DNA of 64,000 nucleotides from Enterobacteria phage P922. The notes below the pieces were generated by a model, which was not told the origin of the DNA, ran no database searches, and saw only the letters and a program-made list of their open reading frames with translations. Every line of letters begins with the position of its first letter. The first letter of the stretch is position 1. Positions 3,473 to 57,390 of the stretch are shown in pieces. The position numbers and the translations under genes are program-made. The stretch lies in sequence record OR999189.1. One strand, written 5' to 3'.

Positions 3473-4282
3473 TTAGAAACGAGATGCGACTTTCGCATAT
3501 ACACTTACAATATCTTCTGCACCAGGTGCAGCTTTATCTTCTACAGCTTCAGTGACGAAATTTAGTCCGGCTGCTTCAGTATCAGGAGTATTTATACCCT
3601 CAGTAATAGTGCTTTCATCTTTATTAGACTTCTTCACCATTTCTACGATGGCACTCAATTTATTTGAGAATTCATCTGAATAATCCATACCTTCGACCAG
3701 AGCAGAGACTTTTTCTTTTTGAGACTCAGTCAGATCTTTAGTACTTTCGCTCAATGCCACTTCACGCTGCACATAATTGATATATGCGTCACGCTTATTG
3801 AGTTCTTCGAACAGACGAGCTGATTCTTCTTTATGTTCTTGCAGCTCTTCTTCCATTTCAGCCACAACATCAACTGATTCTTCTGGAACAACAACGTTGT
3901 GTTCAACAAAGAGCTCTTTTAATCCACCAAGCATGGATTCAAACAGTTCGGCTTTGATGCCTTTATCAACTGCTAATTTATTTTCAGCGAGCCATTCTTT
4001 CGCAAGATGGTCAATGAATTTAGAAGCTTGCTCAGCAATTTTCTTCTCAGCTTTTTCTTCTGCTTCTTCTTTATTTTTTTCTACTTCTTCTTCTGCTTTT
4101 TCAGCAATTTTAGCGATATGAGATTCAGCTAATTTAACGGCGTGCTGCTTGACGGTAGCTTCGAATACAGTGCCGAAAGTTTCTTTTGCTTCCGGAGAAA
4201 TATTAACTGATTCGAAAATACTATCAAGAGCAACGGAAGCATCAATTTTTTGCGCTTCAGCAATCAGTTGTTCTTTAAGCAT
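3473..4282 (-). CDS. 22: prohead core scaffold protein gp22
   Basis: 269 aa, highly acidic coiled-coil protein between genes 21 and 23. Confidence 0.85.
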   Translation of the reverse strand: MLKEQLIAEAQKIDASVALDSIFESVNISPEAKETFGTVFEATVKQHAVKLAESHIAKIAEKAEEEVEKNKEEAEEKAEKKIAEQASKFIDHLAKEWLAENKLAVDKGIKAELFESMLGGLKELFVEHNVVVPEESVDVVAEMEEELQEHKEESARLFEELNKRDAYINYVQREVALSESTKDLTESQKEKVSALVEGMDYSDEFSNKLSAIVEMVKKSNKDESTITEGINTPDTEAAGLNFVTEAVEDKAAPGAEDIVSVYAKVASRF

Positions 4283-4309
4283 TTTGTAGTCCTGTTGTTT
4301 AGATAATAA

Positions 4310-4317
4310 TATTTATA
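4310..4317 (-). promoter_or_regulatory. late promoter (TATAAATA) for gene 22
   Basis: Plus-strand TATTTATA 28 nt upstream of the gene 22 start. Confidence 0.6.
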
Positions 4318-4951
4318 ACGCTTTTTTCATGGCCTCTGCGAGAGCCATATAGGCGTCATCGGCACTTGTATCGGCTTCCGCCGTCTGTGATTCGGTAATT
4401 TCCTTAGGAGTTACCCATGCATCTGGAGCACTTGGACCCCATACTGCATCAACACCTACAGTTAATTTGAATCCTTCGTTTACGATACGATAACCTTTAT
4501 TTGTGTCAGTCAATGAACCTAATCCACGAGAAGAAACTCCTGGAATCCATCCGGCACGAATATTAGCTGCTAATTTATCTCCAGGACCGTGGTCACCTTC
4601 AATAACACGAGCTCGTCCGTATACGTCATTTCCTTTCCACCACATATCTTCTATAATGATAGCGGCTTGCATCGGGTCAACATTAGCGCGTGGAGGATGA
4701 TTTAATTCTCCGAGAGCTTGTTTAGTTAAAACTTGCTCATTAATATAGTCTTTTACCGCTTTTTCTAATATGCGTTTTGGATAAAGACGTTTATTTCTAT
4801 TGACGACTTCTGCTTGCATGAATATTCCTTCGATGTATAAACCCGGTTTTAAACCTAAGTCTTTTCCATCGTGGGATTCAAGCATTGGCACACCATCAAT
4901 AATTTCGCCAGGTTGACCCCAAGTTTCAATTAGTAATTGGGGTTCATTCAT
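4313..4951 (-). CDS. 21: prohead protease gp21
   Basis: 212 aa; size and position between 68 and 22 match T4 gp21. Confidence 0.85.
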   Translation of the reverse strand: MNEPQLLIETWGQPGEIIDGVPMLESHDGKDLGLKPGLYIEGIFMQAEVVNRNKRLYPKRILEKAVKDYINEQVLTKQALGELNHPPRANVDPMQAAIIIEDMWWKGNDVYGRARVIEGDHGPGDKLAANIRAGWIPGVSSRGLGSLTDTNKGYRIVNEGFKLTVGVDAVWGPSAPDAWVTPKEITESQTAEADTSADDAYMALAEAMKKAL

Positions 4952-36289: not shown

Positions 36290-36362
36290 TGGGAATTAGC
36301 CAAGTTGGTAAGGCACTGGATTTTGATTCCAGGATGCAAAGGTTCGAGTCCTTTATTCCCAG
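36290..36362 (+). tRNA. tRNA-Gln (anticodon UUG)
   Basis: Hand-folded cloverleaf: acceptor TGGGAAT/ATTCCCA, anticodon loop ttTTGat, T-loop GGTTCGAGTCC. Confidence 0.8.
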
Positions 36363-36363
36363 C

Positions 36364-36450
36364 GCGAGAATGGTCAAATTGGTAAAGGCACAGCACTTAA
36401 AATGCTGCGGAATGATTTCCTTGTGGGTTCGAGTCCCACTTCTCGCACCA
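36364..36450 (+). tRNA. tRNA-Leu (anticodon UAA)
   Basis: Acceptor GCGAGAA/TTCTCGC, anticodon loop ctTAAaa, long variable arm, encoded CCA. Confidence 0.8.
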
Positions 36451-36455
36451 AATTT

Positions 36456-36529
<74 letters not shown>

Positions 36530-36539
36530 ATTTAATTTA

Positions 36540-36612
36540 CTCCGTGTAGCTAGTTTGGTAGAGCGCCTGATTTGGGATCAGGAGGTCCAAGGTTCAAATC
36601 CTTGTATGGAGA
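36540..36612 (+). tRNA. tRNA-Pro (anticodon UGG)
   Basis: Anticodon stem CCTGA/TCAGG with loop ttTGGga; T-arm CAAGGTTCAAATCCTTG; acceptor stem has two G-U pairs. Confidence 0.7.
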
Positions 36613-36614
36613 CT

Positions 36615-36704
36615 GGAGGCGTGGCAGAGTGGTTTAATGCACCGGTCTTGAAAACCGGCAGTCGCTCCGGCGACTCATAGGTTCAAATCCTATCGCCTCC
36701 GCCA
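36615..36704 (+). tRNA. tRNA-Ser (anticodon UGA)
   Basis: Acceptor GGAGGCG/CGCCTCC, anticodon loop ctTGAaa, long variable arm, encoded CCA. Confidence 0.8.
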
Positions 36705-36709
36705 GTTTT

Positions 36710-36785
36710 GCTGATTTAGCTCAGTAGGTAGAGCAACTCACTTGTAATGAGAAGGTCGGCGGTTCGATTCCGTTAATCAGCACCA
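36710..36785 (+). tRNA. tRNA-Thr (anticodon UGU)
   Basis: Acceptor GCTGATT/AATCAGC, D-arm GCTCAGTAGGTAGAGC, anticodon loop ctTGTaa, encoded CCA. Confidence 0.8.
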
Positions 36786-36786
36786 A

Positions 36787-36861
36787 GGCCCTGTAGCTGG
36801 AAGGTTCAAGCAAGCGACTCATAATCGCCAGATGGTGGTTCAATTCCACCCAGGGCCACCA
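36787..36861 (+). tRNA. tRNA-Ile/Met (anticodon CAU; probably the lysidine-modified Ile type)
   Basis: Acceptor GGCCCTG/CAGGGCC, anticodon loop ctCATaa, T-loop GGTTCAATTCC, encoded CCA. Confidence 0.7.
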
Positions 36862-36870
36862 AATTAATTT

Positions 36871-36957
36871 GGGGAGTTATCCCGTAGAGGTAGCGGTGTG
36901 GACTGTAAATCCATTGTCATTGCGACTCGGGTGGTTCGACTCCATCACTCCCCACCA
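36871..36957 (+). tRNA. tRNA-Tyr (anticodon GUA)
   Basis: Acceptor GGGGAGT/ACTCCCC, anticodon stem-loop GTGGA-ctGTAaa-TCCAT, long variable arm, encoded CCA; D-arm fold uncertain. Confidence 0.6.
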
Positions 36958-36961
36958 ATTT

Positions 36962-37036
36962 GGATGTGTAGCTCAATGGCAGAGCGATCGCCTGTTAAGC
37001 GATTGGTTATAGGTTCGAATCCTATCACGTCCGCCA
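36962..37036 (+). tRNA. tRNA-Asn (anticodon GUU)
   Basis: Acceptor GGATGTG/CACGTCC, D-arm GCTCAATGGCAGAGC, anticodon loop ctGTTaa, encoded CCA. Confidence 0.75.
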
Positions 37037-37040
37037 AATC

Positions 37041-37116
37041 CGAGGCATAGCTCAGAAGGAAGAGCAAGGACCTTCTAAGTCCTAGGTCGTAGGTTCGATC
37101 CCTACTGCCTCGACCA
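37041..37116 (+). tRNA. tRNA-Arg (anticodon UCU)
   Basis: Acceptor CGAGGCA/TGCCTCG, D-arm GCTCAGAAGGAAGAGC, anticodon loop ctTCTaa, T-loop GGTTCGATCC, encoded CCA. Confidence 0.75.
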
Positions 37117-45379: not shown

Positions 45380-45705
45380 TGACAGATACGCAACTTTTCG
45401 AATATCTTTATTTTTCGCCAAAAACTATTAAAAATAAATTGGTGAATCATTTTGAAATTTTGGCAAATAACAACGTCTTGAGCGAATTTTATCCCAAGCA
45501 ATACAAATTACAAAAAGGTGTATTCAAAGGATGCAGAGTTTTGTGCACTGCTCCTAATGCAAGATTAATGAATAAAATTCCATATTTTACCATGGAATTT
45601 ATTGATGGACCTTTTAAAGGACTAATCACCCAAAGTTTAATGGCATATGATTCTGAGCCATTTTTAATTAAAGAACAATCTTGGATAAATTTATTTTCTA
45701 ATTGA
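45376..45705 (+). CDS. hypothetical protein
   Basis: 109 aa from ATGATG overlapping the upstream stop. Confidence 0.45.
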
Positions 45706-45713
45706 GAGGTTAT

Positions 45714-46076
45714 ATGAAAGCATACCAAATTCTTGAAGGCACACATAAAGGTACTATTTATTTTGAAGATGGTATTCAAGCACGAATTATTGTTTCTAAA
45801 ACCTTTAAAGAGGATTCTTTTGTAGACCCAGAAATTTTCTATGGTTTGCATGCCCGTGAAATTGAAATTGAAACACAACCTACAGTTAAAATCGAGGGTG
45901 GTCAACACCTGAACGTTAACGTTCTGCGTCGTGAAACTCTGGAAGATGCAGTTAAGCATCCGGAAAAATATCCGCAGCTGACCATCCGTGTATCCGGTTA
46001 TGCAGTTCGCTTTAACTCTCTGACTCCGGAACAGCAGCGCGACGTTATCGCTCGTACCTTTACTGAGAGTTTGTAA
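45714..46076 (+). CDS. autonomous glycyl radical cofactor (GrcA/YfiD-like, T4 Y06I-like)
   Basis: C-terminal about 60 aa ([60 protein letters not shown]) matches E. coli GrcA from memory, including the RVSGY glycyl radical motif. Confidence 0.8.
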
Positions 46077-46836: not shown

Positions 46837-46866
46837 GTTTACTTTTCCTCTTGACTGTGGTATAAT
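46837..46866 (+). promoter_or_regulatory. early promoter for regB
   Basis: GTTTAC at 46837, TGGTATAAT ending at 46866. Confidence 0.5.
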
Positions 46867-46893: not shown

Positions 46894-47355
46894 ATGACTA
46901 TCAACACAGAAGTTTTTATCCGTCGAAATAAGCTCCGTCGTCACTTTGAGTCGGAGTTTCGTCAAATTAACAATGAGATTCGTGAGGCATCAAAAGCAGC
47001 AGGGGTCTCATCGTTTCATCTAAAATATTCTCAGCATCTTCTTGATCGTGCAATTCAACGGGAGATTGATGAGACATATGTTTTTGAATTATTCCACAAA
47101 ATAAAAGACCATGTTTTAGAAGTTAATGAATTCCTGAGTATGCCTCCGCGTCCTGACATTGACGAGGATTTTATTGATGGGGTTGAATATCGTCCTGGGC
47201 GTTTAGAAATCACAGATGGAAATCTTTGGCTTGGATTTACAGTTTGTAAACCTAATGCGAAGTTCAAAGACCCGTCGCTTCAGTGCAGGATGGCAATTAT
47301 TAACAGTCGTCGTTTACCAGGAAAGGCTTCTAAAGCAGTAATTAAAACTCAATGA
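46894..47355 (+). CDS. regB: site-specific endoribonuclease RegB
   Basis: 153 aa; N-terminus MTINTEVFIRRNKLRRHFESEF consistent with T4 RegB from memory; early promoter upstream. Confidence 0.7.
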   Translation: MTINTEVFIRRNKLRRHFESEFRQINNEIREASKAAGVSSFHLKYSQHLLDRAIQREIDETYVFELFHKIKDHVLEVNEFLSMPPRPDIDEDFIDGVEYRPGRLEITDGNLWLGFTVCKPNAKFKDPSLQCRMAIINSRRLPGKASKAVIKTQ

Positions 47356-47362
47356 GGTAAGC

Positions 47363-47908
47363 ATGAGAAAAGCACTACTCGCTGGTCTATTGGCCATTTC
47401 AATGATGGCACATAGCTCCGAGCATACTTTCAGTAATGTCCAACTCGATAACATGCGTTACGCATATCAATTCGGGGAACAATTTTCTAAGGATGGAAAA
47501 TATAAAACACACAAAAATATCCACAAGAGTGGATTAGGTCATATAATGGCTGCTATTTTATGGCAAGAAAGCTCTGCCGGAGTTAATTTAAAATCTAAAC
47601 CAAAGCATCATGCCTATGGAATGTTCCAAAATTATTTGCCGACCATGCGAGCAAGAGTTAAGGAACTTGGTTATAATATGACCGATGCTGAAATAAAAAG
47701 AATGTTGAATAAACGGTCCAATTCAGCTTCCTGGGCGTACATTGAACTTTCTTATTGGTTAAATATACATAAGGGCGATATAAGAAAGGCAATATCCTCT
47801 TATAATTCGGGATGGAATGTTAAAGCAGGTTCTAAATATGCTTCTGAAGTCCTAGAAAAGGCTAACTACCTTAAAAATAATAAACTGTTGGAAATAGTAA
47901 ATGACTAA
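47363..47908 (+). CDS. secreted lytic-transglycosylase-like protein
   Basis: 181 aa; signal-peptide-like N-terminus (MRKALLAGLLAISMMAHS); SLT-like motifs WQESSAG, YGMFQ, SYNSGWN. Confidence 0.55.
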   Translation: MRKALLAGLLAISMMAHSSEHTFSNVQLDNMRYAYQFGEQFSKDGKYKTHKNIHKSGLGHIMAAILWQESSAGVNLKSKPKHHAYGMFQNYLPTMRARVKELGYNMTDAEIKRMLNKRSNSASWAYIELSYWLNIHKGDIRKAISSYNSGWNVKAGSKYASEVLEKANYLKNNKLLEIVND

Positions 47909-48242
47909 AATTTTGGTTTTATGTGTAGGATTAATTTCATTTTCTGCGTTAGCAAATACATCATACACTGAAATTAGAGAGTATGTAAACCGTACTGCCG
48001 CGGATTATTGTGGGAAAAATAAAGCATGCCAAGCTGAATTTGCGCAGAAATTAATATATGCATATAAAGACGGAGAAAGAGATAAATCAAGCAGATATAA
48101 AAATGATACTTTATTAAAACGATATGCTAAAAAGTGGAATACCTTAGAATGTTCAGTTGCGGAGGAGAAAGATAAAGCCGCTTGTCATTCAATGGTTGAC
48201 CGTTTGGTAGATTCTTATAATCGAGGATTGAGTACTAGATGA
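47901..48242 (+). CDS. small secreted/membrane-anchored hypothetical protein (vs-region)
   Basis: 113 aa with hydrophobic N-terminus (MTKILVLCVGLISFSALA) and several Cys. Confidence 0.5.
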   Translation: MTKILVLCVGLISFSALANTSYTEIREYVNRTAADYCGKNKACQAEFAQKLIYAYKDGERDKSSRYKNDTLLKRYAKKWNTLECSVAEEKDKAACHSMVDRLVDSYNRGLSTR

Positions 48243-48718
48243 TTGTAAAATATATCAAGGGCGATATTGTCGCCCTATTTCTTCAAGGTAATATTATTGC
48301 GCACGGATGCAACTGCTTCCACACAATGGGCTCTGGTGTAGCGGGTCAATTAGCAAGAGCCTATCCCAAAATTTTAGAAATAGATAAAACCACTACCGAA
48401 TACGGTTCTCGTGATAAATTAGGCGATATGTCTATTGTTTTTAAGCATAGTCCTACGGGATTTGGTATATGCTATAACCTGTATACGCAATACGAACCGG
48501 GTCCTAATCTTGATTATGGTGCTTTAGTAAATTGCATGATAGAATTAAATCTACAGGCAGAAACCCTTTTGTTTAAACCAGTAATTTACATTCCACGCAT
48601 AGGTTGTGGTATTGCTGGCGGTGATTGGGATAAGGTTTCTAAATTAATCGACATGTTTACTCCTGATATTGATTTAATAGTGGTGGATTATGAAAGCACA
48701 TTACCCACATCCGTTTGA
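48239..48718 (+). CDS. macro-domain-like protein (putative ADP-ribose binding/hydrolase)
   Basis: 159 aa; motifs KGDIVALF...NIIAHGCNC, MGSGVAGQLARAYP and IPRIGCGIAGGDW resemble macro domain signatures. Confidence 0.55.
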   Translation: MIVKYIKGDIVALFLQGNIIAHGCNCFHTMGSGVAGQLARAYPKILEIDKTTTEYGSRDKLGDMSIVFKHSPTGFGICYNLYTQYEPGPNLDYGALVNCMIELNLQAETLLFKPVIYIPRIGCGIAGGDWDKVSKLIDMFTPDIDLIVVDYESTLPTSV

Positions 48719-49270: not shown

Positions 49271-49852
49271 ATGGCGAGTTTAATTTTTACTTATGCAGCA
49301 ATGAATGCTGGAAAATCTGCTTCTCTTTTGACTGCTGCACATAATTATAAAGAACGTGGAATGAGTGTATTAGTTCTTAAACCTGCTATTGATACTCGCG
49401 ATTCTGTCTGTGAAGTCGTTTCTCGCATTGGAATTAAACAGGAAGCGAATATTATTACGGATGATATGGATATTTTTGAGTTCTATAAATGGGCTGAAGC
49501 ACAAAAAGATATTCATTGTGTATTTGTAGATGAAGCACAGTTTTTAAAAACTGAACAGGTGCATCAATTAAGCCGAATTGTCGATACATATAATGTTCCT
49601 GTTATGGCTTATGGTCTAAGGACTGATTTCGCCGGAAAATTATTTGAAGGTTCTAAAGAACTTTTGGCGATTGCGGATAAACTTATTGAACTAAAGGCAG
49701 TTTGTCATTGCGGTAAAAAAGCGATTATGACAGCTCGATTAATGGAAGATGGAACACCAGTTAAAGAAGGTAATCAAATCTGTATTGGTGATGAAATTTA
49801 TGTTTCTTTGTGTAGAAAACATTGGAACGAATTAACTAAAAAGCTCGGTTAG
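49271..49852 (+). CDS. tk: thymidine kinase
   Basis: 193 aa; P-loop AAMNAGKSASLL; C-terminal Cys cluster; matches T4 Tk from memory. Confidence 0.9.
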   Translation: MASLIFTYAAMNAGKSASLLTAAHNYKERGMSVLVLKPAIDTRDSVCEVVSRIGIKQEANIITDDMDIFEFYKWAEAQKDIHCVFVDEAQFLKTEQVHQLSRIVDTYNVPVMAYGLRTDFAGKLFEGSKELLAIADKLIELKAVCHCGKKAIMTARLMEDGTPVKEGNQICIGDEIYVSLCRKHWNELTKKLG

Positions 49853-50119: not shown

Positions 50120-50413
50120 ATGGCCTTAAAAGCAGCGGCACTTTTTGCCATGCTAGGATTGTCATTTGTTTTATCTCCATCGATTGAAGCGAATGTCGAT
50201 CCTCATTTTGATAAATTTATGGAATCTGGTATTAGGCACGTTTATACACTTTTTGAAAATAAAAGCGTAGAATCGTCTGAACAATTCTATAGTTTTATGA
50301 GAACGACCTATAAAAATGACCCGTGCTCTTCTGATTTTGAATGTATAGAGCGAGGCGCGGAGATGGCACAATCATACGCTAGAATTATGAACATTAAATT
50401 GGAGACTGAATGA
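50120..50413 (+). CDS. rI: lysis inhibition regulator rI
   Basis: 97 aa; signal-anchor N-terminus MALKAAALFAMLGLSFVLSPSIEA; near-identical to T4 rI from memory. Confidence 0.8.
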   Translation: MALKAAALFAMLGLSFVLSPSIEANVDPHFDKFMESGIRHVYTLFENKSVESSEQFYSFMRTTYKNDPCSSDFECIERGAEMAQSYARIMNIKLETE

Positions 50414-56982: not shown

Positions 56983-57390
56983 ATGAAACGGTTGATAATT
57001 AAAAGATTGAATTTATTGATATGTTGTTTATGTATAGTAGTTGCATATGGTTATTACGCAATTAATGATTATATGCATTATAAAGATTATGATGTTACTG
57101 TAGTTAATACTATTACAGGAACTCAAGGAAAAGGGTCTAGTTTATCGTTTATTGCCGTATATGAACTCAAAGACGGTTATAGATTTAGTGAATATATTTC
57201 CCCAGAGATGTATTCTTCAATAGAAAAAGGTGATAATATTACTGTAAGTTTACGTCCTTTCGACGTAAAACAGACACTGTTTGATAATATTGTTTGGTTC
57301 TTTGGGATGGTATTAGTTCAATCCGTGTGTGGCGCTTATGTAGTTTGTTCAATCATATTCTGTGTATTTAGTAAAATTGAAATTGAGTGA
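56983..57390 (+). CDS. small membrane protein
   Basis: 135 aa with N- and C-terminal hydrophobic helices. Confidence 0.45.
   Translation: MKRLIIKRLNLLICCLCIVVAYGYYAINDYMHYKDYDVTVVNTITGTQGKGSSLSFIAVYELKDGYRFSEYISPEMYSSIEKGDNITVSLRPFDVKQTLFDNIVWFFGMVLVQSVCGAYVVCSIIFCVFSKIEIE

Follow-up and report, generated by a model that had tools for sequence, protein, structure and literature searches.

Vs.1 and Vs of a T4-type phage: a predicted secreted SLT-type enzyme and a predicted exported four-cysteine protein labelled as valyl-tRNA synthetase modifier

Introduction

The stretch of 64,000 nucleotides from Enterobacteria phage P922 (sequence record OR999189.1) that was analyzed here, called the window in the following, carries the early region of a T4-type phage (Tequatrovirus), in which two open reading frames (ORFs) for proteins of 181 and 113 amino acids directly follow each other. 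A previous sequence-only reading of this DNA had proposed two consecutive early proteins with signal peptides, one of them SLT-like, and both ORFs were located on the + strand exactly where they had been placed (Table 1). The genes on this strand are arranged in the order regB – vs.1 – vs – tk.4 – tk.3 – tk.2 – tk.1 – tk – rI, which is also the order in T4, and therefore the longer ORF is vs.1 and the shorter one vs, an assignment that we regard as practically certain. A 3.1-kb stretch around the pair shows 98.7% identity to Salmonella phage F13076 and 97–98% identity to many Escherichia and Shigella Tequatrovirus genomes, with 813 phage records matching in total. Compared to T4 (GenBank AF158101 / KJ477685) the genes and their order are the same, and the window represents another isolate of the genus with nothing of substance different.

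Both genes are already known, as is the SLT similarity of vs.1. The SLT match was described as 'marginally significant' in six T4-like genomes, corroborating a PSI-BLAST result from the 2003 T4 genome review, and 'some role in cell lysis' was proposed (Nolan et al. 2006, PMC1524935); some GenBank records of vs.1 already use the name 'transglycosylase SLT domain-containing protein'. In the literature that we searched the function of Vs.1 is not discussed beyond this comparative-genomics remark. Vs, in turn, is uniformly labelled 'valyl-tRNA synthetase modifier' in the databases.

Table 1: Features of the vs.1–vs locus and its surroundings (positions in the window).
Feature	Position	Strand	Basis
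vs.1, 181-residue precursor, SLT/GH23-type single domain	47363–47908	+	Pfam SLT, phrog_600, AlphaFold, Foldseek
Predicted Sec signal peptide, Vs.1 residues 1–18, MRKALLAGLLAISMMAHS followed by SEHT	47363–47416	+	rule, conservation
Glu69 codon (ES motif), predicted catalytic acid/base of Vs.1	47567–47569	+	invariant in 29 orthologues
vs, 113-residue precursor, four-helix, four invariant Cys	47901–48242	+	phrog_1256, PF26829, AlphaFold
Predicted Sec signal peptide, Vs residues 1–18, MTKILVLCVGLISFSALA followed by NTSY	47901–47954	+	rule, conservation
Overlap of vs.1 stop and vs start, 8 nt	47901–47908	+	ORF coordinates
regB, site-specific endoribonuclease, directly upstream of vs.1	46894–47355	+	Pfam REGB_T4, E = 1.4e-68
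tk.4, macro-domain; context gene, 4-nt overlap with vs stop	48239–48718	+	Pfam Macro, E = 1.3e-7
rI, antiholin	50120–50413	+	phrog_1246 'lysis inhibition'
Candidate sigma-70-like promoter, TTTACT, 17-nt spacer, TG-TATAAT	46838–46866	+	consensus scan 10/12 with extended -10 TG; pattern match only

Results and Discussion

Vs.1 and the SLT fold

To take the SLT similarity beyond a single sequence, Vs.1 was analyzed together with its orthologues. On its own the sequence scores 23.4 bits against the Pfam SLT model (PF01464; E = 4.8e-5), a narrow margin over the gathering score of 21.3, and 28 of 29 diverse orthologues with 41–83% identity also match the model (E ≤ 0.01, best 1.3e-7). More remote homologues from the phages Cba120, phiAS4 and KhF3 still reach 22.7, 20.4 and 18.8 bits, respectively. 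In the PHROG collection Vs.1 matches phrog_600 (E = 5.6e-69), with cross-matches to lytic tail and internal virion proteins, and NCBIfam gave no match for either Vs.1 or Vs. Many Tequatrovirus proteins are at least 99% identical to Vs.1, and homologues are found in 2013 phage records from the Straboviridae, the Ackermannviridae and Felixounavirus.

Three motifs can be recognized in Vs.1, namely E69-S70 within WQESSAG, G86-M-F-Q89 and S146-Y-N-S-G-W-N152. In the alignment of the 29 orthologues E69, G86, F88, Q89, N90, Y147, N148 and G150 are invariant, so these motifs are under selection. By analogy with the family-1 lytic transglycosylases Glu69, which lies at the C-terminal end of the helix 59–70 in the structural model, would be the catalytic residue.

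As sequence similarity to solved structures is negligible, we turned to a comparison of folds. The AlphaFold2 model calculated from the 29-sequence alignment has a mean predicted local distance difference test score (pLDDT) of 88.4 and a predicted template modelling (pTM) score of 0.83, and when it was compared to the PDB with Foldseek the best 26 matches were all SLT/GH23 enzymes. Among them are MltD from Pseudomonas aeruginosa, a GH23 chitinase from Ralstonia, LtgA from Neisseria, Slt70 from P. aeruginosa and E. coli, the lysin P5 of phage phi6 and T7 gp16, with Foldseek probabilities mostly between 0.9 and 1.0 and of 0.63–0.84 for the phi6 P5 and T7 core matches. We consider it highly probable that Vs.1 has the SLT fold, and the likeness seen by the sequence-only reading, including the motifs ES, GMFQ and SYNSGWN on which it was based, is borne out by the hidden Markov model search as well as by the fold. 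That the protein is also catalytically active is predicted with less confidence, although we favour it.

Vs.1 is a very divergent and minimal member of the SLT/GH23 fold. It shares this fold, the ES catalytic motif and a predicted periplasmic location with family-1 lytic transglycosylases such as Slt70 (catalytic domain of the E. coli enzyme), MltD, LtgA and EmtA/MltE, while their motifs G-L-M-Q and A-Y-N-x-G are replaced by G-M-F-Q and S-Y-N-S-G and the identity to solved structures is only 13–19%. Unlike these enzymes Vs.1 is a bare domain of 163 residues with an additional N-terminal helix (25–38), devoid of lipid anchor, LysM and superhelical domains, and it is encoded by a phage and presumably made early in lytic infection, its activity being a prediction. 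Even EmtA/MltE, which is also small and has a single domain, differs in being a lipoprotein. The N-terminal domain of T7 gp16 and phi6 P5 have the same fold, yet they are parts of large virion proteins that act from the outside at entry, whereas Vs.1 would be a free protein carrying its own signal and made inside the infected cell.

Export signals of both proteins

All statements on signal peptides made here are rule-based, the rule being a positively charged n-region, an uncharged hydrophobic h-region of approximately 10–20 residues and small residues at positions -3 and -1. The N-terminus of Vs.1 consists of MRK, 13 uncharged residues and AHS before SE (full layout MRK-ALLAGLLAISMMA-HS followed by SEHT), and that of Vs of MTK, 15 uncharged residues and ALA before NT (full layout MTK-ILVLCVGLISFSALA followed by NTSY). 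In the Vs.1 model residues 1–20 have a pLDDT of only about 55. Every orthologue that was examined follows the rule, 29 for Vs.1 and 37 for Vs: their N-termini have one to three positive and no negative charges (except for the Vs orthologue P0099, which has neither), an uncharged stretch of 11–21 residues and a plausible cleavage site at position 17–24.

The signal segments show a mean identity to the window protein of 0.39 (Vs.1) and 0.25 (Vs), compared to 0.62 and 0.55 for the mature parts, while the mean Kyte-Doolittle hydropathy is about +2.05 in the signal segment and about -0.8 elsewhere. Signal peptides typically show such a combination of drifting sequence and constant hydrophobicity. 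The rule was controlled on all 149 ORFs of at least 50 residues in the window, of which it passes five, namely Vs.1, Vs, RI, a 135-residue multi-pass membrane protein and a 56-residue shadow ORF. For RI a cleavable signal peptide, rather than a signal-anchor-release (SAR) domain, has been shown experimentally (2021, PMC8385771). Since so few ORFs of the window pass the rule and the feature is kept in all orthologues despite the low identity of the segment, the N-terminal layouts of Vs.1 and Vs go beyond chance. Export is thus very likely for Vs.1 and, with somewhat less assurance, likely for Vs, and the signal peptide that had been suggested for the longer ORF has the tripartite layout that one would expect. 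The predicted mature Vs.1 has 163 residues, 18.8 kDa and an isoelectric point (pI) of 9.7.

Signal peptides together with the motifs ES, G-x-F-Q-N and S-Y-N-A-G are also present in the remote Vs.1 homologues orf114 of Cba120 (Ackermannviridae) and that of KhF3 (Felixounavirus). As these homologues carry signals as well, a secreted minimal SLT enzyme appears to be shared by three or more groups among the large virulent myoviruses of enterobacteria.

Vs, a four-cysteine helical family

Vs is 95.7% identical to T4 Vs, with 113 instead of 115 residues owing to a two-residue indel in the c-region of the signal peptide. It matches phrog_1256 (E = 7.5e-40), and according to precomputed annotation its homologues are all labelled PF26829 'ValRS_modifier'. 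Relatives were found in six clusters by a word-index search and in about 40 by a profile search, all from T4-like phages; three weak word-index matches (P0122–P0124) aligned to a frameshifted fragment and were dropped as spurious. When 1.84 billion cluster representatives were searched exhaustively with a HMMER profile, only eight proteins were obtained, all of them orthologues from T4-like phages, and no similarity of sequence or fold was found outside the family itself.

The hydrophobic N-terminus and several cysteines that had been noticed before in the shorter ORF are indeed found, the former as the signal layout described above and the latter as five residues, of which C8 lies within the hydrophobic N-terminus whereas C37, C43, C84 and C95 are invariant among the orthologues. 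The predicted mature protein has 95 residues, 11.0 kDa and a pI of 9.1, compared to 12.9 kDa for the precursor. In the AlphaFold model (pLDDT 85.3) the helices 20–37, 41–63, 68–84 and 89–110 form a four-helix bundle in which C37 ends helix 1, C43 starts helix 2, C84 ends helix 3 and C95 is located early in helix 4. Judging from these secondary-structure positions, disulfides C37–C43 and C84–C95 probably staple two helical hairpins. Disulfides of this kind would require the oxidising environment of the periplasm.

The most distant orthologues, P0125 and P0126, keep the four-cysteine pattern at 26–30% identity and are located on metagenomic contigs with the synteny regB – vs.1 – vs – ... – tk (P0126 at positions 4001–4327 of locus L006, contig SRR27558799_977). 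P0125 has a Sec-type signal, while in P0126 a lipoprotein box, FALSG before C, replaces the signal-peptidase-I site; a weak LPAM_1 match in one of eight Vs orthologues scanned is presumably this protein. Because signal-peptidase-I and lipoprotein signals alternate in the family and four cysteines are found in 95 residues, the Vs family is very probably extracytoplasmic.

Two candidate relationships were tried and rejected. Vs shows neither homology nor fold similarity to Spackle, the T4 inhibitor of the gp5 tail lysozyme, and a possible likeness to the LprI/DUF1311-type lysozyme inhibitors, which are exported helical proteins with four cysteines, found no match to the Pfam model or to a solved DUF1311 structure.

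Probable coupling of the two genes

Vs is always encoded directly downstream of vs.1, and the junction of the two genes is overlapping or within 2 nt in all five loci inspected, that is in the window, L001, L002, L006 and L007; the genes are 2 nt apart in L002 and share 1 nt in L006 and L007. As vs starts this close to the vs.1 stop in five loci, translation of the two genes is probably coupled. The candidate promoter upstream of regB would likely drive an early regB–vs.1–vs–tk.4 transcript, and early timing of both genes is suggested by what is known of T4 and by the context, as they lie on the + strand after regB and behind this promoter. The linkage of regB and vs.1 recurs in Aeromonas phage phiAS4 and in the metagenomic locus L006.

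A conserved module of an SLT enzyme and a small secreted partner was considered and discarded: what follows the vs.1 homologue in phiAS4, Cba120 and KhF3 is in each case an unrelated gene whose product has no signal peptide. As Vs also has the narrower distribution, Vs.1 does not require Vs, and if Vs does cooperate with Vs.1 it is a lineage-specific add-on. A functional link between the two proteins is therefore no more than a tentative suggestion.

Phenotypes of vs and vs.1 in T4

In a transposon screen of T4 (HIDEN-SEQ, a 2025 preprint) vs was the most depleted gene in M9-glucose compared to LB, and phage with a clean deletion of vs formed plaques only poorly on minimal medium (bioRxiv 10.1101/2025.11.20.689424). 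The log2 fold change in minimal medium was -2.19 for vs (q = 0) and -0.87 for vs.1 (p = 0.0055, q = 0.155; supplementary file 7 of the same preprint). Both genes were scored non-essential in rich medium, with 46 of 52 TA sites hit in vs.1, while t was scored essential and insertions in e were almost absent (bioRxiv 10.1101/2025.11.20.689424).

The authors comment on vs only; in their table the LB-control read means are 26.6 for vs and 22.6 for vs.1 compared to 652 for vs.3, 265 for vs.4, 290 for tk.4 and 767 for tk.3, so that insertions in both genes are about 10-fold below those in flanking non-essential genes even in LB. These shared low reads could reflect a mild fitness role common to vs and vs.1.

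Vs and the valyl-tRNA synthetase label

The name of Vs reportedly goes back to tau, a factor from the classical work of Neidhardt and Marchin that is said to bind the cytoplasmic valyl-tRNA synthetase (ValRS) of the host. Its reported size of about 10 kDa cannot separate the 12.9-kDa precursor from the 11.0-kDa mature form of Vs. To bind ValRS in vivo tau must be located in the cytoplasm, whereas the protein that carries its name is predicted to be exported and disulfide-bonded, as indicated by the signal peptide, the lipobox of P0126 and the four cysteines. The label of a cytoplasmic ValRS modifier is thus topologically inconsistent with the predicted export of Vs, while for a wall-cutting enzyme such as Vs.1 an export signal is to be expected.

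Vs may nevertheless be the cytoplasmic tau factor that binds host ValRS and changes its properties, such as the stability to urea and heat, the N-terminus of Vs being non-functional or export being partial, with Vs.1 as an unrelated neighbour, and we regard this as a possible but tentative explanation. It agrees with the uniform annotation in hundreds of genomes as well as with phrog_1256 and PF26829, and the depletion and poor plaquing of vs mutants in M9-glucose would make sense if a factor of translation were lost while amino acids are limiting. It does not easily explain why the N-terminal sequence drifts among the orthologues and yet all 37 of them retain the layout of a canonical signal peptide, why one orthologue has a lipoprotein box instead, and why four cysteines are invariant within a helical protein of 95 residues. 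A downstream alternative start that would skip the hydrophobic segment is also missing, as the next methionine is residue 98. Furthermore, none of the papers accessible to us places vs mutations inside the Vs ORF, and several neighbouring ORFs encode products of about 8–11 kDa; a signal peptide on Vs is not mentioned in the literature searched either. Full-length Vs ('Valyl') with an N-terminal His-tag formed inclusion bodies in E. coli (PMC8076793). Such insolubility in the cytoplasm speaks against a cytoplasmic protein and is expected of an unprocessed secretory precursor, yet it is non-specific.

The opposite proposal places Vs in the periplasm as a processed protein with disulfide bonds, whose partner or target would be Vs.1 or another component of the envelope. 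It would make the ValRS label misleading and is in its full form also doubtful. If it is true, the label, now 50 years old, might be explained by an assignment of the classical vs locus to the wrong frame, by binding that occurs only after cell breakage or by a second, unexpected pool in the cytoplasm, and the need for vs in minimal medium would be a phenotype of envelope or peptidoglycan turnover and not of translation.

Proposed role in the envelope

Taking these results together, the explanation that we favour, with a probability of roughly 0.6, is that vs.1 and vs are coupled early genes of T4-type phages whose products are both exported by Sec into the periplasm, where Vs.1 would cut the cell wall and Vs would act on the envelope. 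According to this model both genes would be transcribed early together with regB and translated in a coupled manner, and both precursors would be exported and cleaved near residue 18. Mature Vs.1 would then be a free periplasmic SLT-type enzyme that uses Glu69 as acid/base and cuts the bonds between N-acetylmuramic acid and N-acetylglucosamine in the host murein early in infection. Mature Vs would fold in the periplasm as a basic four-helix bundle stapled by two disulfides and bind an envelope target, with Vs.1 or a host wall enzyme as candidates. The action of Vs.1 would be a local remodelling of the sacculus from the periplasmic side and not lysis, because vs.1 is dispensable and lysis depends on the late holin–endolysin pair with the endolysin encoded by gene e. 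The remodelling of peptidoglycan that the sequence-only reading had put forward is in this sense a reasonable hypothesis.

Several points weigh against this model. For Vs.1 the Foldseek figures are modest, with E from about 1e-2 for the best match up to 0.75 and TM scores of about 0.4–0.5; a phmmer search of solved structures gave nothing relevant, and a profile search of the same structures gave a single match, a goose-type lysozyme with E = 0.34. Moreover, the GH23 fold alone cannot tell a lytic transglycosylase, which cleaves without hydrolysis and yields 1,6-anhydroMurNAc, from a hydrolytic g-type lysozyme, which leaves a reducing end. For Vs, the label is based on classical T4 genetics and biochemistry, and a sound mapping of the vs mutants would mean that part of the Vs protein, at the least, acts in the cytoplasm; the phenotype in minimal medium fits a role in translation at least as well as one in the envelope. 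With respect to the pair, the lower number of vs.1 insertions could be a polar effect on vs, and Vs is found in 795 phage records compared to the 2013 with Vs.1, so that most phages with Vs.1 have no Vs.

The muralytic fold and the export signal of Vs.1 would also suit an accessory factor of lysis or lysis timing which, with or without Vs, weakens the wall before or along with the gene e endolysin or takes part in lysis inhibition like RI. Such a role is in line with the suggestion of Nolan et al. 2006 (PMC1524935), with rI being located 2 kb downstream in the window and with the KhF3 homologue adjoining rIIA and rIIB. We nevertheless consider it unlikely, as vs.1 is part of the early operon behind regB, away from the late lysis genes, and its tolerance of insertions differs clearly from the essential t and the almost untouched e in the T4 screen. 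In addition, an active endolysin secreted freely and early would be expected to cause premature lysis.

The sequence-only reading had also suggested superinfection exclusion as a function of the pair, and a role in exclusion or in resistance to lysis from without can be imagined by analogy to Spackle, a periplasmic early protein of T4 that blocks the gp5 tail lysozyme (PMC7677548, PMC7650644). Both Vs.1 and Vs are predicted to be early and periplasmic, and Vs would be a small exported protein like Spackle (gp61.3) and RI, which are likewise small T4 periplasmic proteins with cleavable signal peptides (PMC7677548, PMC8385771). The functions of these two, gp5 inhibition and antiholin activity, have been demonstrated, whereas Vs has no detectable homology or specific fold match to either and resembles only its own family. 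As imm and sp already account for the known exclusion functions of T4 and the papers searched report no superinfection phenotype for vs or vs.1, we found nothing in support of this suggestion and regard it as very improbable.

Neighbouring features

Downstream of the pair the T4 orthologue of tk.4 has been named AdfM and counters the DarTG2 defence system (bioRxiv 10.1101/2025.11.20.689424), while the macro-domain gene is still labelled 'phosphatase' in many GenBank records. Three small ORFs follow on the + strand between tk.4 and the thymidine kinase gene tk (49271–49852). A G+C-rich inverted repeat (48258–48276, AGGGCGA-TATTG-TCGCCCT, followed by ATTTCTTC) lies 16 nt past the vs stop, within the beginning of tk.4. 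On either strand it was marked as resembling a terminator, and it could be an RNA structure or attenuator between vs and tk.4 or a coincidence of coding.

Upstream, a 124-residue ORF (45702–46076, +) occupies the position of vs.6, for which a strong Gly_radical match was reported by Nolan et al. 2006 (PMC1524935); the equivalent in Ec_MI-02 is annotated as 'autonomous glycyl radical cofactor GrcA'. On the metagenome contig that encodes P0126 a gene of the Acb2/Tad1-hairpin family is located between the glycyl-radical gene and regB. The 135-residue ORF that passed the signal-peptide rule (56983–57390, +) starts with a strongly hydrophobic stretch (MKRLIIKRLNLLICCLCIVVAYG...), contains one or more further hydrophobic segments and matches phrog_2547 of unknown function (E = 1.9e-67); its product is probably located in the inner membrane. 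A cluster of ten tRNA genes (36290–37116, +) comprises Gln, Leu, Gly, Pro, Ser, Thr, Met(CAT), Tyr, Asn and Arg. T4 is said to have eight tRNA genes, its CAT tRNA reportedly being read as Ile after modification, and Tyr and Asn would then be extra here.

Conclusion

Among the accessory genes of the large virulent myoviruses of enterobacteria vs.1 is one of the more widely conserved, and its role, once found, would add a step to the textbook infection cycle of T4. Vs is one of the oldest named phage–host modification factors, now with a clear minimal-medium phenotype, and it may surprise the specialist that a protein labelled for so long as cytoplasmic bears every sequence hallmark of a periplasmic one. 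A periplasmic location of Vs would call for a new look at the accepted accounts of its phenotype in minimal medium and of the ValRS modification known from classical work. Should the protein be cytoplasmic in spite of its sequence, it would be an exception from which the prediction of signal peptides can learn.

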